Source of the DNA: Nitrosopumilus sp.
Lineage (GTDB): Archaea > Thermoproteota > Nitrososphaeria > Nitrososphaerales > Nitrosopumilaceae
Direction: 5' to 3'
DNA: 64,000 nucleotides
Assembly: GCA_965207445.1 (NCBI GenBank)
Contig: CBDBLX010000002.1
Location: forward strand, 992,001 to 1,056,000
Under the pieces are notes generated by a model, which saw only the letters and a program-made list of their open reading frames with translations, was not told the origin of the DNA and did not search any database. Both the position numbers and the translations under genes were made by a program. Shown piece by piece: positions 10,196 to 22,908 of the stretch (positions are counted from its first letter, which is position 1; every line of letters begins with the position of its first letter).

Positions 10196-11034
10196 TTAAA
10201 TTTTATAATTATTTAAAATGATTATACTCTATAATAAAGTGTTACTATAATGTATGATCATTTATATGAATTGATAGGTTAAATGATGAGTGTTGCTTGT
10301 GGGTTGTTGCTTGTGGGTTGTTGGTGTATGATAAACTTGCATGATTTCACATCTAAAAAATTTGTGTGAATCAAGGTGTGAACCAACCTATTTTGGCATA
10401 ATAACAAGATCATATATTTTTAAGATGTATCATCAGACGGTGGGCCAATGATTTTACACAACTCCTCCCAGACATTTAGTCCACGCAGCTTCCACGTCTC
10501 AACACAACTAAATATTACACAGAGATTTTCTGCTCCCTTGTCACTCTTCAACTGTAGATGATTGTTCCTCTGACCTATTACAGGTTTCATTGACTGTTCT
10601 CCAAGATTTGTGGTATAGTAGACAAATGGATACAAAACAAATGTAAAAAGTTCGGGCGCTGCATTTTTTAGTGTGGTGCCAAACTTTTTCATTATCTCAT
10701 ATCTGCTTTTTTTGTATCTAGATATTATACCACACAACCATTTTTGAAGTTTTGTAACATATGAACGCCTACTCTTTAAAGAGCGGTCGCCACGAGTCCA
10801 TTTGCGCAACGCGATAAATTTTTTGTTCAACTCATTGTACAGATTGGTAGCAGATTCAAGTTCACTACGATTTGAAATAGTTCTACTCTCCCGCACAATG
10901 TGTTGTGTGTAGCGCTGTTTTATGTGATTTGAGAATACAGTACCATACCCGCGATATCCATCTCGACTTATTGCACCAATACAGTTTTCGGCCTGTACTA
11001 TGAGATCTGTTGCACTACGATTCTGAGAGTGCAT

Positions 11035-11143
11035 ACTGATATGATTAAAGATCCGATATTTTGATTGATATTCATCTCGAAGTTGAGTACATATTATGAA
11101 TACAAAATATTAGAAAACTATCGGATCTTTAATGAAACTATTA
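11035..11143. mobile_element. 109-bp MITE nested in the IS66-B transposase (family M4)
   Basis: Absent from the sister copy near 22597; flanked by TGCAT direct repeats; 15-bp perfect subterminal IR ATTAAAGATCCGATA (11044-11058) / TATCGGATCTTTAAT (11119-11133). Confidence 0.85.
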
Positions 11144-11744
11144 TGCATGTACGCTACAGTGTCATCGTTTCTAACTGCCATTATCCATCTTTTGGGCTCA
11201 CCTTTGTATTCGGTCTCATCCATGATTACTGACTGTGATTTTTCTAATTCTGCCATGAAACCATCTCTTATGGGTTTTAGCATTGCAGTTTGACGGTCGT
11301 ATATATTACGAATTGTCGTATCAGAAACGTCTAGTTTGTACAGATTCTTTAAATCTTCTGAAACCATTTTAGGAGTCTTTCTGTGCGTGGATTGATATGT
11401 TACATAGCGAATTACAGAGTAATCGAACTGACCGTTTGGTGGAAGGTTATTTTTAGCTTGAAATTTTGCACCACAGTCAAGACAATTGTACTGGGCAGTT
11501 TTGTGTAGCGTTACAGTGTGAGGAACAAATTCATGTATAGAAACTATTGTCCGTTTTTATCCTTGTGGAGGTCTTGTATGTTGTTTTTACCACCACTCTG
11601 GGCAACATGTAGCAGCATGTCTCTTTTTTTCTGTTGCTTTGAATATGTGAGTACCACCATTATGCCCTAAAACACCACTTCGTTTGTTGGGTTTAGCCTT
11701 GTCTGTCTTTGCACCATTAGTGTTGTTTTTGTTTTGTGCAGATG

Positions 11745-11787
11745 TTTTTGATTTATTATTTTTTGATTTATTATTTTTTGATTTATT
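11745..11787. repeat. 15-bp tandem repeat (TTTTTGATTTATTAT, ~2.9 units) in the IS66-B pseudogene
   Basis: Direct reading of the sequence. Confidence 0.8.
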
Positions 11788-12271
11788 TGGATGTATGGCG
11801 CCCTGCTTTGATGATGGTGTATGGGCATTCTCATAATAGTTGAGCTTTGCCTCATAATTTTGTATGGTTGTATCTTTTTTTTTGACTTTGTTTTTTTATA
11901 GCAGTGTTATTCTTTTCTAGGTTTAAGTTATCTTCTTCTAATGTATTGACACGGCGCTTTAATGTATTTATAATATGATCTTTTTTCTTTAGCTCTTTAT
12001 ACTTACTATCTATTTTTGTTCAAGTTGCTGAATTTTCTTTTCATATTTTATTTTTAATTGAATATATACATAATCTGCTTTGTCTGATCTTTTTTGACTC
12101 ATGGTGTTGGTAAAAACCTTTGATCATATATGTGTATTTATTATTTCCAATGATTTAGATAGATTGATTTAAATATGAAAAATATCATAGTAAACCTAAA
12201 AATCTAAATTATTTTATTTATTCATATTCAAATTTTAAATGAATATATCAATCAGGGAGGTTGGTTCACAC

Positions 12272-12510
12272 GATATATTTAGTCCGAGATCGTCGAATCG
12301 TTTTCGTAAAACTTTATAATTTACTTGTCCTAACTCATATTGATGTTTTAGTACCTCATTTTTCATATAATACCAGAGATACTAGAATATTCCCATATAT
12401 TACACTTTCTATTTGATCTGATCAAATATGATCGTCAACGTTCAACGACATTGCGGATTATTCAAACAAAATCATATAAAACACATTGCGAACTAATGAC
12501 ATAGGCACAC
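12272..12510 (-). mobile_element. 5' end remnant of an ISH3-like element
   Basis: Reverse-complement homolog of ~58440-58667 (shares TCGTCGAATCGTTTTCGTAAAACTTTATAATTTACTTGTCCTAA); truncated exactly at the IS66-B IR. Confidence 0.75.
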
Positions 12511-12658
12511 TCGTATCGTTCATGAGCGTGCTGGTCTGAGGTGGGAAGGGGTTGAATGGTTACGTATTATGCGATAATGTGGTATATATGGATATCGTAA
12601 TAATGTATAACATCCCAATCTTTAAAAACAGTGTCATCTGACACGATAACACTACATC

Positions 12659-12901
12659 ATGACATTGAGTATCAAGATTGCAAGGGGCAAAGAATACCTG
12701 TACTTTCAGGCTGGCAAGGAGTCACTGTATATCTGCCCCAAGGACAACCCTTCAAAAGCAAAGATGGAGAACTTGACTAGGGCGCTTGAGCACACCAAGG
12801 AGAGGATGAATCACTATGCTACGTCGTACGAAGAACTTCTCCAGTTACTACCGCCCAAAGAGCGCAAACAGTATGCCACAAAATGGGTTGTGTCATCATG
12901 A
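12659..12901 (+). CDS. Small basic putative DNA-binding protein, first gene of the defence operon
   Basis: MTLSIKIARGKEYLY motif followed by a helical C-terminus. Its stop overlaps the next start (ATGA, 12898-12901). Confidence 0.65.
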   Translation: MTLSIKIARGKEYLYFQAGKESLYICPKDNPSKAKMENLTRALEHTKERMNHYATSYEELLQLLPPKERKQYATKWVVSS

Positions 12902-15900
12902 GTGGAGATCTTGTTCCGAACAAACATGTGAATATTTCCACACAGATATTGGACAATCAAAGTAACAACGTGGTGGATTACCTGTCCTCGCATCTTTCTG
13001 ACTCGACCACATTTAGAGTCGTGTCTGCATACTTTACCATACAGGGTTACGATCTCCTGGCAGACAAGCTAGACTCACTCCAGGATGTCAAGTTCCTATT
13101 CGGTGATCCTGATTCGTTGGATGATCTGGATCCGGATAAAAATGAAGACAAACGTTTCGAAATTCGAGAAACAGGACTTCACCCTTTGCATTCTTTAAAA
13201 CAAAAACCCTTGGCAAAACGATGCCATGATTGGTTATCCAAAGAATCGGTGCAGGTTCGCTCCATGGTTCATACCAATCTCCTGCACGGTAAGATGTACC
13301 TTACAGAATCTCCTACGGGAATGGCAGGTATCGTTGGAAGTTCAAACTTTACTAAGCGCGGACTTGGATCTGGTGATCTACCAAATATTGAGATCAATCT
13401 TGCAAGCAATAATTCTGATACAATAGTGCAATTACAAACGTGGTTTGATCACTTATGGAACGATCAAGAGAAAACAAAAAACGTGAAACCGGATGTGCTG
13501 GATGCATTAAAAAGGGTAGGATCTGACTACTCTCCTGAGATCATATATTACAAAACCCTCTACGAGTTATTTAAACAAGAGATAGATGATCGAAATACAC
13601 GGGATAAAACACTCAAATCCACATCCATTACAGAAAGCCAGATCTGGAATAAACTATATGCGTTTCAACAAGACGGGGTTCGTAACGTCATATCAAAACT
13701 CCAAAAACACAACGGTTGTATACTTGCTGATAATGTTGGCCTTGGTAAAACGTATACGGCGCTAGCAGTCATCAAGTATTTTGAGCAGCGCAATGAGCGT
13801 GTTTTAGTATTATGTCCACGTAAATTACACGAAAACTGGTCACTATATCAGGCGATCAACAATCATAAACAAAATCCGTTTCCCGAAGATCGATTTTCAT
13901 ATACGTTGTTGGCACACACGGATCTATCGCGTGAATCTGGCAAATCTGGTAGTGTGGACCTGGCTAATTTCAACTGGAGTAATTATGACCTTATCGTAAT
14001 TGACGAGTCACATAATTTTCGCAACAAGGCCGGCAGCAGGTATAACAAACTGCTTGATGACGCCTTCAAAACTGGCATTAACACAAAAGTCTTGATGCTC
14101 TCTGCCACACCAGTCAACACCGATCTAAGCGATCTTCATAATCAAATATCATTAATGACTGGAGGAAAGGATAATCACTTCAATGAAACACTTGATATTG
14201 GCAATATCTCCAATGTCATGATTGCTGCCAAAAAAACTTTCAACGCTTGGGCTTCTGAACTTGACAATACGGGTAACAGAAACAAAGACACACTTTTGGA
14301 CAAGTTAGATTCGGATCTCTTTAGACTTCTAAATGCAACATCCATTGCACGCTCTCGCAAGCACATAAAGCAGTTCTATGCTGATGAACTTACTCGAATT
14401 GGGGCCTTTCCAAACAGGGACAAACCTGACAATAGATCTCCTAAAACAGATTTGAGTGAAAAACTGTCTTATGAAGAACTCGCAGAGAACATAAATGACT
14501 TTCATCTGTCATTGTACAAACCCAGCCACTACCTAATTAACAAGGAAAAGATTGACGATCTGGAAGAAAAAAGAAAAAAGCAGCACTTTAACCAACTTGA
14601 CAGCGAAAAGTTTCTGATAGGCATGATGAGAACCAATTTCCTCAAACGGCTTGAGAGCTCTGCTCATTCGTTGACATTGACCTTGAATCGTACTATCTGC
14701 AAGATGGACATACTTTTGGACAAAATCGACAGAGGTGTCAAGATCTCTGATAGTGATATTCAACCTGATGATATTGACGATGAGAATGATGATTTTATTA
14801 TCAGTAGGGAACACATCTCCTATCGCTTCGATGAGCTTGACTTGGTGCAATGGAAACAAGATCTTAAACGAGATAGGCGTGTACTGTCCAACGTGTTGCG
14901 TCAAGTTGAAACAGTTACTCCTGATCGGGATGGAAAATTGGTAGCAATCATGGGCGACATTCAAAGCAAAGTGCAAAATCTAACATATAACAAAGACGGA
15001 AAACCGAATAAAAAAATATTGGTATTTACCACCTTTAAGGATACTGCCAAATACCTGTACAAGGAGCTTGAAGGACTCTCAACTAAACTAAACATCAAAA
15101 TGGCTATGGTATCTGGAGATGAAACGCACACTCAAGTTGGGAAAAATAACTTTAATGAGATATTAAGTAATTTTGCACCTGTTGCACATAGTCGTTCAAA
15201 CAACGAAATGCCTGAAATTGATCTCCTTATTGCAACTGACTGTCTTTCAGAGGGACAGAATCTGCAAGATTGCGACACTGTCTTAAATTATGACATACAT
15301 TGGAATCCAGTGAGGTTAATACAGCGTTTTGGCCGCATTGATCGCATTGGTAGTAGAAACTCTCTTGTACGTATGATAAACTACTGGCCTACTAAAGATA
15401 TGGATGTCTACCTTAGGCTAGGACCCAGAGTTTCTTCGCGCATGGCAATGGTGGATATCACTGCAACCGGTGACTATGATCCACTTGATGACTCACATGA
15501 GGGGCAAGGGACGACTCGCAACTTTCGAGATGCTCAACTCTTACATCTCATGGATGAGATTATAGACTTGGATGATGATAGTAACGAAATTGGTTTAGGG
15601 GACTTTATAATCGAGGATTTTCTTGCCCAGTTGATGCATTACTTGGAGAAGAACCGAGCTCGATTGGAACAAATGCCGCGGGGTGTTTATGCAGTCACAA
15701 AACGTGACACACAAACTAAGACAGGCGTAATATTCTTTCTAAATCAACGTAATGCCGGATCAAAACAGAATCGGCATGTGGCTAGTCCCGTACACCCGTA
15801 TTATTTTGTGTACTTGTATAATGATGGCACCATACGCTATGGATGTTCCAGCGCCAAGCAAATCTTGACACTGTTTCAAACTCTATCAGTAGGGCGGACT

Positions 15901-16137
15901 GAACCCATTCAAGATCTTTGTGATGCTTTTGACAATTCTATTGAACATGGCAAAAACATGGAGCAGTACAATAAGTTACTCGATATCGTAATATCTCACA
16001 TTCGGCAATCTAACAAAAGCAGGCAAAGTCGAGGACTTGGACTAAATGGATCTGCAGACTTTGTTGTACCAAAACTGTCGGAATCCCCCAGAAGTGCCTT
16101 GGACTTTGAACTAATTACATGGCTTGTAATTGTGTGA
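12898..16137 (+). CDS. PLD (HKD)-family nuclease fused to a SNF2-type SF2 helicase
   Basis: PLD motif LHGKMYL...GIVGSSNFT. Helicase motifs LADNVGLGKT, IDESHNFRN, LSATP, LVFTTFKDTA, IATDCLSEGQNLQ and NYDIHWNPVRLIQRFGRIDR. Confidence 0.92.
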   Translation: MSGDLVPNKHVNISTQILDNQSNNVVDYLSSHLSDSTTFRVVSAYFTIQGYDLLADKLDSLQDVKFLFGDPDSLDDLDPDKNEDKRFEIRETGLHPLHSLKQKPLAKRCHDWLSKESVQVRSMVHTNLLHGKMYLTESPTGMAGIVGSSNFTKRGLGSGDLPNIEINLASNNSDTIVQLQTWFDHLWNDQEKTKNVKPDVLDALKRVGSDYSPEIIYYKTLYELFKQEIDDRNTRDKTLKSTSITESQIWNKLYAFQQDGVRNVISKLQKHNGCILADNVGLGKTYTALAVIKYFEQRNERVLVLCPRKLHENWSLYQAINNHKQNPFPEDRFSYTLLAHTDLSRESGKSGSVDLANFNWSNYDLIVIDESHNFRNKAGSRYNKLLDDAFKTGINTKVLMLSATPVNTDLSDLHNQISLMTGGKDNHFNETLDIGNISNVMIAAKKTFNAWASELDNTGNRNKDTLLDKLDSDLFRLLNATSIARSRKHIKQFYADELTRIGAFPNRDKPDNRSPKTDLSEKLSYEELAENINDFHLSLYKPSHYLINKEKIDDLEEKRKKQHFNQLDSEKFLIGMMRTNFLKRLESSAHSLTLTLNRTICKMDILLDKIDRGVKISDSDIQPDDIDDENDDFIISREHISYRFDELDLVQWKQDLKRDRRVLSNVLRQVETVTPDRDGKLVAIMGDIQSKVQNLTYNKDGKPNKKILVFTTFKDTAKYLYKELEGLSTKLNIKMAMVSGDETHTQVGKNNFNEILSNFAPVAHSRSNNEMPEIDLLIATDCLSEGQNLQDCDTVLNYDIHWNPVRLIQRFGRIDRIGSRNSLVRMINYWPTKDMDVYLRLGPRVSSRMAMVDITATGDYDPLDDSHEGQGTTRNFRDAQLLHLMDEIIDLDDDSNEIGLGDFIIEDFLAQLMHYLEKNRARLEQMPRGVYAVTKRDTQTKTGVIFFLNQRNAGSKQNRHVASPVHPYYFVYLYNDGTIRYGCSSAKQILTLFQTLSVGRTEPIQDLCDAFDNSIEHGKNMEQYNKLLDIVISHIRQSNKSRQSRGLGLNGSADFVVPKLSESPRSALDFELITWLVIV

Positions 16138-18205
16138 GGTGGGTTGATTTGATGACCGATAACAAAACCCGTATTCGGCAATCATTATTATCCCTTTCCG
16201 TAGGTGATTTTGGACATCGAGTAACTGAGCTATTGAATACATTGGGATACAAAAGTGATCGCATAGTCCATGACCGATTTGTCAGCGCATTGGAATTTAT
16301 TAATGAATACAGCGCAGATCAACCAACACAGTATGAAGAATTATTTCTTTTAGAAGTTAAATCCGTACGTGTACTATTTCAACTGACTGATGCTGAAATT
16401 GATGTGGAGCAAACTAAATTGCTTAATGAAAACATCTTTGATTCGGGAAAAACAAAAAGCTTTGTATTTGTTGCCGTTCAGTTGACATCTCACAAATATG
16501 CACGGGGCCAGTATGCATCATTTACTAGAGAAATAAACAAGCGATTTAACATGCCGGTGGTTGTACTGTTTAAGACACTTGGTGATCTTTATACTATATC
16601 TTTTGTACATCGACGTGAAAATCTACGTGATCAAACTCGTCATGTTCTAGGACCCATTTCTTTAATTCGTGAAATTAAAGCTAAAGATCCCAACCGCGCA
16701 CACATTGACATACTTGAGGCCTTGATGATGGATGCGCGTCTCAAGTGGATGGATGATAATGACAAGCAAAAAAATTTTGATGGTCTGCTAAAATCCTGGT
16801 TGAGTGCACTTGATGTTGAAGAACTCAACAAGAGGTTTTATTGTGACTTGTTTGAATGGTTCTTGCATGCAGTCAATCACAGTAAACTTCCAAAGTCAAA
16901 TATAAAATCTTTAAAACCTGAAGAGCATACACTTCGTCTCATTACTAGACTACTTTTCATATGGTTCATCAAACAGAAAGGATTGGTTGCTGATGACTTA
17001 TTTAACGAAAACAGAATTCGAACATTGTTAAAAAATTATGATAGTAAAGATGGTGACTCATACTATCGTGTAATTCTACAAAATTTGTTTTTTGCTACAC
17101 TTAATACAAAAATCAGTGATCGTAATTTTAATGATAGTCCCAACGATGCATTATCTTATCATTTTAAAAATGAAATGGAAGATCCTAAAGCTCTTCAAAC
17201 TCTGTTTAACAAAACTCCTTTTATCAACGGCGGATTATTTGATTGCTTAGATGATGATTCCGATCTTGTTGATTATTTTGTAACTGATCCTGAAAAGAGA
17301 AGTGTTTATTCCATCCCAAATTTTCTCTTCTTTAATTCTGGTGTGGGGGGATACAAAATGGCAAAAAACCACAACAAAAATTCCATACCGGGTTTATTTA
17401 CAATATTCGGTAAATATCATTTTACTGTTGAAGAGAACACTCCTCTGGAACAGGAAGTTGCACTTGATCCAGAACTAATTGGTAAAGTTTTTGAAAATTT
17501 ACTTGCTGCATATAATCCTGAAACACGTGAAACTGTACGAAATCAAACTGGATCTTACTATACTCCTAGAAAAATTGTTGATTATATGGTGGATGAATCA
17601 TTATGCACAGTTCTTACAGATAAGGTAACAAAACTAATGGAAAAAAATACCGTAAACGCATCTATGAAATTATCTGAGAAACAAATCACTGTGTTAGGTG
17701 ACAAAATACGTGCGCTGTTGGGTTATTCGTTTAATGTAACTAATTCGAAATTAAATAATTTAGAATGTAAACATATTGTTCACGTTATTTCTAAAATTAA
17801 AATAATTGATCCTGCCGTGGGTTCTGGTGCATTTCCAATGGCCGTATTGAACAAATTGACACTTATCTTGAACCGTGTTGATCCTGATAATGTATTGTGG
17901 GAACGATTACAACGCGATATGACTAAGGAGCGAATCAAAGATGTCTTTGAATACGAAGATGAAAAACTACGTGAGACTCAATTAAAACATATCAACACCG
18001 TTTTTGAAAAATATCGAAATAATTTTGGACGCAAACTTTGTTTAATTCAAAATAATATTTATGGAGTAGACATTCAACCCATTGCTATTCAAATAGCTAA
18101 ACTCAGATTTTTTATATCGTTAGCAATTGAGCAAGACCCAACTGCAAATCCCAGTACTAATTATGGTATACATCCACTACCAAATTTGGAAACAAGATTT
18201 GTCGC

Positions 18206-20334
18206 GTAACAGTTCAACCCCTATTTTGTAAGTAGGCATACAGATACAGCAATAGCGATCACCGATCATTATTGTGATCGAATTTACGTAAATCTAAATG
18301 ATAAACACGATGATATGTGAGAAAGTGCCCAAAATGTTGAAAACACGTTTGATTATTTTTTGCATCTAGGCAGGAAATTACTCAGCTAATTGATCTGTGG
18401 TCAGCTTTTGACATTGCGGGGTGTTAAATACATAGTTTTTTACTTACCATTGATACCAAAATGGTAAGTAGAAAACTTAATGATATTGTATTGCAAAAAC
18501 AGTATTTAGACTATTTTAATCACAATAATGAAAATTTACATAATTGTGTACAGTGTGTGCTCAAACACAGTTGTGCGGTGAGTAGCAAAATCATCAGAGG
18601 TGGTGTGTTGCAATGATCTCAGAGATGACCACACTGCGCAAAGAAATTCATACATTGCACTCACAGTTGGATTCTGCAAATGATACGATACGCAACAATT
18701 CTGCTGAATTAGAGAAGAGTCATCTAGAGACGGCTACTGCGCGAGCAGAGATTGCGGTATTAGAAGAGAAATACTCCAAAATGTCTGCCAAAAACAAGCA
18801 GCTTGAGGATACAATAAAGCAACAGCAACAGCAACACAATTGCAGTCAGGAATGCATAGTTTTGAGAGAAGAGAATGTACAACTAAAACAACAACTCCAA
18901 CAAAAAACCAGACAACACCACCGTGTTGATAATGCCCACACACCTCCCTCTGCAGGAAGCGACTCACAAAATAAACTCAAAAATTACAGACGCGAACATG
19001 CAGAACGCTGTTACTTGGAATATGGAATAGTTATGGAAGCCATTACTAATTCTGACAATTATGTACTCGAAAATGTAATTGCACATGAAACCAACGACAA
19101 AGCGGTTAGAAAAGGAGTCAGTCTAATCCTGTATGGGTTAGAAGATAAGACAAAAGGAAAAAAATGGAATGAAGGTGAGGGAGAGGAGAAAACAACCATA
19201 TATGATATGGACGTCACAGAGGAAATTGACTATACAGTAGACAAATGCCCCGAATGTGGTGCAGATGTAGATGTTAAACACGAATGCAAGATGGTAATAG
19301 ACACTCCAAAAATAGTCAAAGCCACAAAAAAACGGATTAAATCATCAAAAGGCAAGTGCAAAAACAACCACAAAATAAACACCATGCCCAAAGGATATAC
19401 CAAAGGCTCAATGTTTGGCCCCAATCTCATGACCATGATCGTATTCATGTTCTTTACAACACTCAGTCTAAACTCCATATCACACATGCTAACGCTAGTC
19501 GGCGTTCCAAAGGTCTCAAAGGTGACCATAATGAACGCTCTTACAGCAGTAGCAAGAGAAAAGTTTGCAGCAACTGCAAAACAGATCTCAAAAAATCTTG
19601 CAAAAACAAGATATTTGATGGGTGATGAAACGCCAGTCAAAATAGGCATAAAACGTGGCTATGCGTGGGTGTTCATAGGCGAATATGGCATCAGTTTTGT
19701 CATTACTCGCTCACGTGGTGCGGCTGTATTAGATATACACTGTCCGTTATTTGACATTCCAATCGTGGTGGATGGATACGCCGCATACAACAAATTCAAA
19801 ACCAAACAGCGCTGCTGGGCGCATGTTTTGCGCGATGCCGAACTGCTGGCAGCCATGCAAGGCGGCAATCTCGTAGAATTACACCAAAAACTCCAACACA
19901 TATTTCACGAGGCCAAACAGCTACCCCCAGACACCACAGATCAACAACTGCAAGACAACTGGATAGATCCCGTCATGGCAATTGCAGGCACATATACAGA
20001 ACTGGGATACTCGTTTGGTGGTAAACTACTCAATGCGGCGCCAGACCTGTTTACATTTGTCAAATATCCGGGCATGCCACCTACCAACAACAAATCCGAA
20101 CGAACACTTCGACGCGTCGTGATTCACAAAAAGATTCGTCAGATGTTTCGCAGTACAACAGGAATGGAGGTTTATGGTATATTGATGTCATGTATGATGA
20201 CGTGGTATGATCAGGACAAGGATCTTGTAAAGAACATCTATGACACCATCATGGCAAGCTAAATCATTCACCAAACTTCATCGCATAGCGGTAGATGTGT
20301 GTTGAGGTGTACAGGTAGGGGGTTTAACTGTTAC
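18206..20334 (+). mobile_element. Intact single-ORF IS66-family element (type A), 2,129 bp
   Basis: IR GTAACAGTTCAACCCC / GGGGTTTAACTGTTAC; perfect 9-bp TSD ATTTGTCGC (18197-18205 / 20335-20343). Confidence 0.96.
18613..20262 (+). CDS. IS66-family transposase
   Basis: N-terminal coiled coil, TPPS, CPECG zinc finger, GSMFGPNL, MGDETP, VVDGYAAY, QRCWAHVLR and PPTNNKSERTLR. Confidence 0.95.
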   Translation: MISEMTTLRKEIHTLHSQLDSANDTIRNNSAELEKSHLETATARAEIAVLEEKYSKMSAKNKQLEDTIKQQQQQHNCSQECIVLREENVQLKQQLQQKTRQHHRVDNAHTPPSAGSDSQNKLKNYRREHAERCYLEYGIVMEAITNSDNYVLENVIAHETNDKAVRKGVSLILYGLEDKTKGKKWNEGEGEEKTTIYDMDVTEEIDYTVDKCPECGADVDVKHECKMVIDTPKIVKATKKRIKSSKGKCKNNHKINTMPKGYTKGSMFGPNLMTMIVFMFFTTLSLNSISHMLTLVGVPKVSKVTIMNALTAVAREKFAATAKQISKNLAKTRYLMGDETPVKIGIKRGYAWVFIGEYGISFVITRSRGAAVLDIHCPLFDIPIVVDGYAAYNKFKTKQRCWAHVLRDAELLAAMQGGNLVELHQKLQHIFHEAKQLPPDTTDQQLQDNWIDPVMAIAGTYTELGYSFGGKLLNAAPDLFTFVKYPGMPPTNNKSERTLRRVVIHKKIRQMFRSTTGMEVYGILMSCMMTWYDQDKDLVKNIYDTIMAS

Positions 20335-21942
20335 ATTTGTCGCAGCAGATACACTTATACCTCTCACCAATTTTCAAAAATACACTCAAGAAACACTCGG
20401 TCAAACTGACGAAATAAAAAAATTAGAAAAACTTCTTCTAAATAACCGTGAACAATATTTTCATGCCAACACTAGTGAATTGAAATTAAAATATAAAAAA
20501 TGTGATATGGAGTTACGTGAGAATCTTATATCTGTCTTAACTTCTGAAAATAAAAAAACAGGATATTTAGAAAAAATTATTCAATGGAATCCCTACAATC
20601 AAAATGAAACTGCAAATTGGTTTGATATTAAATATATGTTCGGAACACATGATGGATTTGATTTGGTGATTGGCAATCCACCATACATATCACTTACAAG
20701 TGAAAATGGTAAGTTGAGGCAACGTTATAGTCATATAAATTATCAAACATTTTCTAGCCGCGGTGACATATATCAATTGTTTTTTGAATGTGGTTGTAAT
20801 ATGCTCACTCATGATGGAATATTGACCTTTATTACATCGAACAGTTGGCTAAAAACCGAATATGGTAAGCGCACGCGTGCATTTTTTCCAAAATATTATA
20901 CCCCATTGTGGTTAATTGAATTAGGAAAAGATGTATTTGAAAGTGCAATTGTTGATTCGTGTATATTTTCTTTATCTGCGAGATCTATGGATGCGTCTGT
21001 ATCGTTTAAGGCTGTGGATCTCGATACTCAAATTGATTATATTTCTAACTTAACAGTTTGGAAGCGAATTCTTATTCTTGGTGATTCTCCGTGGTGTATA
21101 TTATCTGATCCTGAGCAACGTATCGTAAACAAAATTTGCTCTAAAGGAACCCCATTGAATGCTTGGAACGTAACTGCTAACATGGGCATTGTCACAGGCC
21201 ATAATGATGCGTTCATTATTAACACAGAAATAAAAAATAAATTAATTCAATCCGATTCAAAATCTATTAATATTTTAAAACCCATGTTACGTGGCAAGGA
21301 TATTGATCGTTTTTCTCCAAAATGGAAAGATCTTTGGTTAATTGACACCCATAATGGTTATGATGACGTTGACTCAGTAGATGTTAAAAAGTATCCAGCT
21401 ATTATGGAACATTTTAAACAAAAACATTTGTATCCTAAATTAAAAAAACGATCTGATCAAGGAAAAACTGTGTATAATTTGCGTGATTGTGCATATCATG
21501 AAAAATTTAAAAGTGAAAAACTGTTTTGGGCCGATATGACATCTATGGGCCGATTTGCTTATTCTGATACGGAAACCTATTGTAACAGTAAAGGTTACAT
21601 AATGGTTGGAGAGTCTTTAAAGTATCTGTGTGCAGTTCTTAACAGTATGTTGATTGCATGGTACATACAAAACACCGCCGCTACTACTGGTATGGGACTT
21701 ACAGAATGGACGGTTGTGACGGTTAAACGCATACCAATTCCAAAAATCTCAATCGAGTTACAACGTCCATTTGTATCACTAGTTGATAAAATTATTAAAA
21801 TAAAGTCTACCAATCCTGATGCAGACACACGCGAATATGAGAACCAAATAGATCTATTGGTCTATAAATTATATCAATTATCTGATGATGAAATTAATAT
21901 TGTTGATCATGATTTTTTAAATAAAAAATGATTGTGCAATAA

Positions 21943-22859
21943 GTGTGAACCAACCTATTTTGGCATAATAACAAGATCATATATCTTTAAGATGTATCAT
22001 CAGACAGTGGGCCAATGGTTTTACACAACTCCTCCCAGACATTTAGTCCACGCAGCTTCCACGTCTCAACACAACTAAATATTACCCAGAGATTTTCTGC
22101 CCCCTTACCACTCTTTAACTGCAGATGACTGTTCCTCTGACCTATTACAGGTTTCATTGACTGTTCTCCAATATTTGTGGTAGAGTAGACAAATGGATAC
22201 AAAATAAATGTAAAAAGTTCGGGCGCTGTGTTTTCTAGTGTGGTGCCAAACTTTTTCATTATTTCATATCTGCTTTTTTTGTATCTAGATATTATACCAC
22301 ACAACCATTTTTGAAGTTTTGTAACATATGAACGCCTACTCTTTAAAGAGCGGTCGCCACGAGTCCATTTGCGCAACGCGATAAATTTTTTGTTCAACTC
22401 ATTGTACAGATTGGTAGCAGATTTAAGTTCACTACGATTTGAAATAGTTCTACTCTCCCGCACAATGTGTTGTGTGCAGCGCTGTTTTGTGTGATTTGGG
22501 AATACAGTATCATATCTGCGGTATTCATCTCGACTTATTGTACCAATACAGTTTTTGGCCTGTGCTATGAGATCTGTTGCACTACGATTCTGAGCGTGCA
22601 TGTACGCTATGGTGTCATCGTTTCTAACTGCCATTATCCATCTTTTGGGCTCGCCTTTGTATTCGGTCTCATCCATGATTACTGACTGTGATTTTTCTAA
22701 TTCTGCCATGAAACCGTATCTTATGGGTTTTAGCAGTATGGTTTGACGGTCGCATATATTACGAATTGCCGTATCAGAAACGTCTAGTTTGTACAGATTC
22801 TTTAAACCTTCTGAAATCATTTTAGGAGTCTTTCTGTGAGAGAGTTGATATGTTACATA
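21943..22859 (-). mobile_element. IS66-B, 5'-truncated copy 2 (transposase fragment 21987-22877)
   Basis: Starts with the same IR GTGTGAACCAACCT, closely matches 10376-11406, and lacks the 109-bp MITE. Confidence 0.9.
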
Positions 22860-22908
22860 CTGAGTGAGCGGAGCCATACTTTACATCTATTATATTATAA
22901 ATTGTAAT

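Follow-up and report, generated by a model that had tools for sequence, protein, structure and literature searches.

The window analysed here is a 64,000-nt stretch of a Nitrosopumilus sp. genome (G000:C2:992001-1056000; positions below are window positions unless a contig is named). On its + strand, positions 12659 to 21931 hold a small gene, a gene fusing a phospholipase D (PLD) domain to an SNF2 motor (gene 2), and a large N6-adenine methyltransferase (MTase) gene (gene 3) that is interrupted by an insertion sequence (IS). We hold with moderate confidence that the two large genes are a copy, split by an IS and probably dead, of a two-gene module that is widespread and likely an ATP-dependent restriction-modification (R-M) system in which the MTase reads and methylates DNA and its likely non-catalytic DUF4391-like front domain recruits the PLD-SNF2 cutter. 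This reading is built on the observed gene anatomy, the IS break, the co-occurrence of the two genes, the homology of the front domain to DUF4391, and which catalytic residues are retained and which are missing. The module exists, is widespread and has no name; it is broken in this genome, and it has two genes, not the three proposed in the initial annotation.

The gene coordinates and couplings given in that annotation were confirmed in the sequence. The small gene (12659-12901), an 80-aa open reading frame (ORF), shares an ATGA stop/start overlap at 12898-12901 with the PLD-SNF2 gene (12898-16137, 1,079 aa), and a 14-bp gap separates the latter from the MTase ATG at 16152. The MTase gene is not one continuous ORF: an IS66-family element of 2,129 bp (18206-20334, + strand) divides it into pieces of 684 and 528 codons. 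The 5' piece (16152-18205) contains the DUF4391-like N-terminal domain (residues ~1-225), a helical region and motif I (residue 553); the 3' piece (20344-21931) contains the NPPY catalytic motif, a TaqI_C-type target recognition domain (TRD) and C-terminal helices (Eco57I, E 2e-25; TaqI_C, E 8e-14). The IS therefore falls between motif I and NPPY. It shows all the features of its family: a DDE_Tnp_IS66 transposase of 549 aa (18613-20262; PF03050, E 2e-29; NF033517, 184.8 bits against a cut-off of 180), terminal inverted repeats, and a target duplication, here of 9 bp (18197-18205 and 20335-20343); a duplication of 8 bp is usual for IS66. Four more full-length copies in the genome are 96-99% identical, so the insertion is probably recent.

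Removal of the IS and one duplicate in silico gave an open frame of 1,213 aa starting at ATG 16152. The NPPY MTase of ~1,213 aa with a C-terminal specificity domain described earlier can thus be recovered after IS removal; it is not a continuous ORF, the interruption was missing from the title of that description, whose text does mention reconstituted proteins, and with the MTase split the proposed working operon is unsupported. Intact MTase homologues are 1,201-1,208 aa long and 70-78% identical, and a single chain joining a gamma MTase to a recognition domain, split by the IS in the window, is present in the intact homologues P0123 and P0125. Across four close intact homologues the recognition domain varies most: identity is 40-79% there and 69-78% in the N-terminal domain. 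With the MTase broken, this copy of the module is probably dead.

Read evidence came from four runs of a single sample in the form of contigs, which drop rare variants and whose depth gives no share of cells. The cassette showed no differences in these contigs, which enter the IS from either side, and no joint restoring the MTase was listed in the four runs, rare variants being dropped. A joint from 10375 to 22890, skipping 10376-22889, was present in all four runs (the letters between are not known), so a cassette-less arrangement coexists in that sample. The left-flank contig differed from the window at six positions, which indicates that strains coexist.

Gene 2 matched Pfam PLDc_2, SNF2-rel_dom and Helicase_C, and consists of a PLD domain (residues ~14-200), an ATPase (~250-840) and, at its C-terminus, an alpha/beta domain (~870-1079). 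It carries one PLD motif (H130-x-K132, G147-S-S-N150, N163-x-E165) and a complete SNF2 ATPase with its catalytic motifs, in agreement with the earlier description of a single HKD motif fused to a full SNF2 helicase. PADLOC, run on the proteins as had been suggested, gave C3a139 'HKD+Snf2' as the best model for gene 2 (349 bits; 115 bits for the PADLOC DrmD model) and REase_MTase_IIG as the best for the MTase. A CRISPR-accessory role, suggested by the C3a139 label, was rejected. The C-terminal domain was modelled with a predicted local distance difference test score (pLDDT) of 81.8, and a structure search with it returned a generic helical hairpin only. No solved close relative of gene 2 or of the MTase was found by sequence. 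Decay of gene 2 was also rejected: its Walker A change S279N is common to three other homologues.

The MTase front domain is homologous to DUF4391. A profile built from 47 MTase front domains and compared in hhalign with a profile of 13 DUF4391 proteins gave a probability of 96.5 (E 8e-10) over 173 columns. In a scan of species genomes at least 590 of at least 591 stretches were confirmed, and the best 80 loci were kept. In a protein search, 7,999 of 7,999 candidates scored E 1e-30 or better. A DUF4391-like domain accompanied PLD-SNF2 in 77 of the best 80 loci, across many bacterial phyla. It was of the MTase N-terminal type in 63 loci (some cut by contig ends; in L044 it is fused only to sigma-70 regions). 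In 14 loci DUF4391 was a gene by itself, and in 13 of them the ORF after it carried a Mod-like motif; Mod and Res were confirmed by Pfam in both loci tested. The beta-class Mod and PD-(D/E)xK Res of Type III R-M occur only in this 14-locus variant and not in the window locus. Both genes were whole in 37 of the 66 non-Type-III loci; five had a whole motor and a broken MTase, as here (some may be assembly errors), and two had the reverse. The other 22 were cut by contig ends, doubly broken or without an MTase match. The neighbourhood survey proposed in the initial annotation thus bore out the co-occurrence of the two large genes.

The catalytic residues of the PLD follow the partner genes. The PLD motif HxK..GSxN..NxE was kept in all 56 full-length non-Type-III proteins (56 of 68 overall) and lost in all 12 full-length Type-III-linked proteins. 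Four further Type-III-linked proteins, two gene fragments and two plasmid proteins, also lacked it (4/4), and the PLD domain was still detectable in 14 of 14 proteins tested. The residues thus predict a PLD that is catalytically intact without a Res partner and dead with one. They are also consistent with the division of labour first proposed for the pair, in which the MTase recognises the site and the PLD-helicase cleaves.

This pattern bears on a BREX/DISARM-like exclusion mechanism, in which the MTase would mark self and the SNF2 motor would block phage replication without obligatory cleavage, the PLD serving as a back-up. Gene 2 does have weak profile similarity to DrmD and BrxHII, and in the Type-III-linked branch the PLD is dispensable and the ATPase motifs are invariant. 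Against it stands the motif's retention in 56 of 56 proteins without a Type III Res partner. Nor did 133 neighbouring genes on the same strand (300 aa or longer, from the 66 non-Type-III loci) include DrmA, DrmB or a BREX core gene at a PADLOC cut-off of E 1e-20. We therefore consider exclusion unlikely. In the same survey, which had no background control, 34 of the 133 neighbours matched assorted CBASS, Gabija, Qat, AbiE and PDC models, one of the 34 being a metabolic gene.

It also seems quite unlikely that PLD-SNF2 acts autonomously, either as a modification-dependent nuclease like SauUSI or as a toxic effector like AbiR, with an MTase that merely protects the host or travels along. An intact nuclease gene lies beside a split MTase here, and linkage tracks the DUF4391-like domain and not one MTase type. 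What speaks for autonomy is AbiR, which includes a SauUSI-like nuclease and an Snf2 subunit and is described in the accessible text of PMC13064643 as toxic without its methylase, together with the C-terminal domain of gene 2, which lacks an assigned fold and could read DNA.

The front domain itself is probably a restriction-endonuclease fold that is inactive, as judged from its predicted model (pLDDT 92.6). The best structural match was to DrdV, a Type IIG enzyme, in its endonuclease region (7lo5 residues 2-143), a weak match (Z 5.9, root-mean-square deviation 4.0, 122 residues aligned), followed by BpuSI (Z 4.3) and Hjc; Foldseek returned no match to the PDB at E 0.001. With the D..(D/E)xK register assigned from the predicted model, 4 of 47 sequences showed acid-acid-Lys; the window protein reads R73/Q110/T112 at these positions. 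The modelled MTase N-terminus, in which the initial annotation suggested looking for a PD-(D/E)XK site, thus has a weakly endonuclease-like fold, and in the assigned register the window protein lacks the triad, which leans towards an inactive domain. Near-invariant residues of the domain are F76, Q77, R118, R126, N129, R154, R155 and H184. A PF14335 search of the window's own genome gave no match, and the controls were likewise unmatched.

On these data it is very unlikely that gene 3 encodes a regular Type IIG enzyme whose N-terminal nuclease is active, with PLD-SNF2 as an accessory neighbour. Such an enzyme would fit the best PADLOC score of the MTase, the resemblance of the N-terminal fold to the DrdV and BpuSI nuclease domains, and acidic residues that are common at two of the assigned positions. 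It fits poorly with the rarity of the full triad, of which the window protein has none, with IIG matches that span the MTase and TRD and not the N-terminal domain, and with a homologous domain that is also found on its own, as DUF4391, and joined to sigma-70 regions.

In the two-gene R-M mechanism that we favour, the MTase-TRD would recognise and methylate its site, probably on one strand, and so mark self. The N-terminal domain, at the position of the Type IIG nuclease, would have lost its catalytic triad and become a docking module for PLD-SNF2. The latter would dimerise to form one PLD active site, load at unmethylated sites, move by ATP hydrolysis and cut, as proposed for MtsD of MANTIS. 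The IS would part the docking domain from the recognition domain; with the two separated the motor should not be targetable, and an intact nuclease gene would therefore be harmless. The coexistence of the intact nuclease gene with the split MTase in this genome is in keeping with this reading.

Several points weigh against this mechanism. The 12 PLD-dead proteins form one clade, so that the anticorrelation between the PLD motif and Type III linkage is a single evolutionary event. Three of the 80 loci (L023, L029, L061) have no DUF4391-like partner, and PLD-SNF2 relatives of ~30% identity in this archaeal family pair with MTases whose N-termini match neither profile (5 of 5 tested). The Z score of 5.9 sits within the range of common arrangements, the catalytic register was read off a predicted model, and an ExK-like motif persists in some homologues. 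Silencing could, instead, account for tolerance of the split MTase, given the repeats 120 bp upstream of the promoter. The literature searched held no test of the pair by phage, plasmid, methylation or cleavage assay, and in the accessible text of their report the MANTIS authors saw no MtsD cleavage or binding in vitro (10.64898/2026.09.23.753747). We give very little credence to a locus that is still partly working, through MTase pieces expressed separately or a motor at work in another of the genome's systems: gene 2 is not excessively decayed (five deviations at 228 conserved columns, against six to eight in its five closest relatives) and a 483-codon ORF covers the MTase 3' piece, but the IS splits the catalytic domain between motif I and NPPY, and a recent insertion explains the absent decay (IS copies 96-99% identical).

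A broader idea, which we put forward tentatively, is that DUF4391 descends from a dead Type IIG nuclease and acts as a plug-and-socket domain attaching one PLD-SNF2 motor to different DNA readers. With a gamma MTase-TRD it would form its own minimal two-gene class of ATP-dependent R-M. With Type III Mod/Res it would form an unrecognised four-gene subtype with a nuclease-dead SNF2 and two motors. With sigma-70 it could tie the motor to transcription. DUF4391-like domains fused to sigma-70 regions were seen beside PLD-SNF2 or MTase genes at L018:13252-14652, L044:3735-6194 and L082:16863-18455; in plasmids, nothing was found to connect the sigma-70 fusion with AbiR. Fused-type proteins forming one clade were not rejected (approximately unbiased test, p-AU 0.63), and neither the nesting of the Type III branch nor the direction of the change in the PLD motif was shown by the tree, a quick one with 51 of 115 rows.

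The small gene had been taken for a coupled regulator of the system. Its physical coupling through the ATGA overlap holds, a regulatory role for the system is unsupported, and we rejected a dedicated regulator, as the gene belongs to an integrase module that stands before varied cargo. The 80-aa product had no Pfam, PADLOC, NCBIfam or PHROG match. Four copies lie in the genome, each before a different R-M cargo: of the three paralogues, one precedes HsdS, one a Type III Res/Mod pair, and one a DUF5655 gene with a second MTase/PLD-SNF2 pair. The gene is present in 13 of 151 family genomes. Among loci from other genomes 19 of 20 were re-matched, and 16 of these 19 were head-to-head with an integrase-like gene of ~430 aa or its remnant. 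The ~430-aa family gave a weak NCBIfam match to XerA-type tyrosine recombinases in 9 of 11 proteins (best E 8e-5) and a PHROG match in one of five; Pfam did not recognise it, and its profile returned repeat-driven chance matches only against solved structures. A transfer RNA (tRNA) gene was present in 9 of the 20 loci. Atlas neighbours of the small gene, DUF6788 and DUF1678 clusters at 0.82-0.83, are a lead only. From these contexts we read the small gene as an integrase-module gene whose promoter the cargo would use. The divergent integrase is missing at this locus, and neither a tRNA nor an integrase remnant was found within the window.

A candidate cassette promoter and operator lies at 12621-12644 (+ strand), where a TATA-like A/T run ~38 bp before the small gene is followed by a 6-2-6 inverted repeat (12631-12644). 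The A/T run is kept in all four genomic copies, and the upstream ~97 bp is 83.5% identical to that of the C2:469k copy. A sigma-70 promoter scan was at chance level, the sigma-70 model being unsuited to archaea. In the archaeal family, this genome included, we observed tRNA-linked integrated elements (G000:C2:469088 and 988222; related L123-L142) with a divergent integrase that Pfam recognises poorly and a head-to-head gene of 75-80 aa, whose cargo includes Type I, Type III, IIG, BR-like, Vsr and PLD-SNF2 genes. Integrated elements with R-M cargo are described for Thaumarchaeota in the accessible text of PMC6563490, and small integrase helper proteins in SNJ2 in that of PMC8371274. The cassette likely arrived as cargo of such an element, the small leader gene supplying a promoter.

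Compared with known systems, the window pair falls outside DISARM, MANTIS and classic Type IIG. The initial annotation had likened it to a minimal DISARM-like or IIG-like system. Class 1 DISARM (DrmD, DrmMI, DrmA, DrmB, DrmC) and ARMADA share with it an SNF2-type helicase gene adjoining a large adenine MTase gene in defence islands. The DrmMI match is weak, however (E 1e-11), gene 2 scored 140 bits against a DrmD model with a cut-off of 610, the PLD is fused and not separate as in DrmC, and no YprA/DrmA-B helicase stands beside the pair. The absence of DrmA and DrmB that had been noted is supported, the sole PF09369 (DUF1998) match of the genome lying at C2:2.14 Mb, 1.1 Mb from the pair.

By analogy, MtsC and MtsD of MANTIS (formerly Gao_RL, Type-2 BREX-related, MtsA-D) are a closer functional analogue than DISARM. 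Going by the parts of the reports that are accessible (10.64898/2026.09.23.753747, PMC12839542), the likeness lies in an N-terminal HKD/PLD fused to an SF2/SNF2 ATPase effector, in an N6-adenine MTase that supplies specificity, and in tolerance of MTase loss. MtsD is reported there as a PLD-SF2 dimer, specificity as following the MtsC recognition domain, and mtsC deletion as not toxic, in contrast to a binding-competent dead MTase (10.64898/2026.09.23.753747); HKD-Swi2/Snf2 effectors are placed in Type-2 BR systems with DUF499 and DUF3780 (PMC12839542). The window locus differs in having no DUF499 ATPase (MtsA) or DUF3780 (MtsB): no such gene lies between the flanking IS elements, with DUF3780 assessed without a profile search and genes below 300 aa filtered out at other loci. 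The only PF04465 match in the genome was a 234-aa frame at C2:664 kb. The window MTase is of the Eco57I/TaqI_C NPPY type with a DUF4391-like front domain, whereas MtsC is DPPY. Hemimethylation and restriction that depends on inverted sites are further marks of MANTIS and Type-2 BR systems. Against NF042964, which we take to be a model of an MtsD-like protein, gene 2 scored 158 bits (cut-off 1100).

Type IIG enzymes (DrdV, BpuSI, Eco57I, Cj0031) share the order of endonuclease-like fold, helical region, gamma MTase and recognition domain; here the front domain does not conserve the triad, and the MTase gene nearly always has a motor-nuclease gene as partner. In Type ISP enzymes nuclease, helicase, MTase and TRD form one polypeptide, whereas two genes are found here and in homologous loci. 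The PLD-like SNF2/DUF4391/Type III Mod/Res operon of plasmids and Bacillota (e.g., NC_014131.1) shares an SNF2 family of 36-40% identity and a homologous DUF4391, and differs in a free-standing DUF4391, a lost PLD motif and a nuclease that is likely Res; no characterisation of its SNF2 and DUF4391 genes was found.

The archaeal novelty first suggested for the pair does not hold, as the subfamily is mostly bacterial and already catalogued. The pair has been noted in print (Milman 2023): Table 3 of PMC9881135, in its accessible part, lists without tests a Cj0031-like Type II R-M coding sequence beside a PLD (cd09178)-SNF helicase coding sequence in Bacteroides, a locus with the same two-gene architecture when compared by description. 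C3a139 'HKD+Snf2' is listed, and defined as a CRISPR type III neighbour, in the accessible text of PMC6546367; that context is absent at the window locus. A full-text search, mostly outside subscription papers and supplements, returned no characterisation of the pair, and a named description may exist. DUF4391 came up in three papers only. The accessible parts of 10.1101/2025.09.15.676423, PMC10853773, 10.64898/2025.12.08.692795, PMC7784981 and PMC11232893 hold no description of it. The contributions of the present analysis are the PLD motif's loss along the Type-III-linked branch, a new assignment for the small gene, and the finding of an IS-made knock-out.

The loci also vary around the pair. 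DUF1016/YhcG or Schlafen-AlbA genes are often inserted between PLD-SNF2 and the MTase (L045, L049, L050, L060, L063, L085 and others), and an SMC-like ABC ATPase often follows the MTase. The recognition-domain region is found in further copies close to the MTase at L018:21246-21935, L022:19719-21351 and L012:19692-22670, some on the opposite strand and one TIR/TPR-fused, which suggests specificity switching by inversion, as reported in the accessible part of PMC9881135. Among the plasmids of the collection, 120 carry a gene for a PLD-SNF2 relative (E 1e-50); both of those inspected are of the DUF4391/Type III form, and only one plasmid matched the fused N-terminal domain.

The nearest named relatives of gene 2 (50-58% identity) belong to Chloroflexota, Poribacteria, Latescibacterota and Spongiisociaceae, groups with sponge symbionts. 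PLD-SNF2 matches occurred in 22 of 300 other family genomes, all at 28-33% identity. Judged by identity and nearest neighbours only, transfer of the cassette from such bacteria is likely; grouping of the window protein with distant archaeal paralogues was not rejected (p-AU 0.52). The genome also has another cassette that looks uninterrupted (G000:C2:2389837-2398227; L088:6838-15228); it comprises, in order, a small-gene paralogue, a 300-aa DUF5655 gene, a 1,344-aa IIG/DrmMI-like MTase and a 1,068-aa PLD-SNF2 gene. The latter has an intact PLD motif and ~30% identity to gene 2, and the MTase N-terminus does not match the DUF4391-like profiles. As a working archaeal system this cassette is more promising than the window copy.

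Mobile sequences flank the window cassette. On its left lies a second IS66-type element (10376-12271, - strand), broken by a repeat of ~118 bp (11030-11148) and adjoined by a multicopy repeat of ~230 bp (12272-12502). On its right lies a truncated copy of the same element in the same orientation (21943-22859, - strand). The two repeats, with up to 68 and 39 overlapping BLAST hits genome-wide, respectively, are probably miniature inverted-repeat transposable elements.

If the two-gene reading is true, thousands of 'Type IIG' and 'helicase-related protein' annotations would be one unnamed defence class, the simplest form of the MANTIS logic, in which an MTase aims a motor-nuclease, without the extra ATPase of MANTIS. 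DUF4391 would gain a function, and many Type III operons would carry a second, nuclease-dead motor. With its split MTase the window copy is a poor test object. It is also a natural knock-out consistent with MTase-dependent targeting, and an example of R-M cargo moving via integrase-linked elements in this archaeal family.

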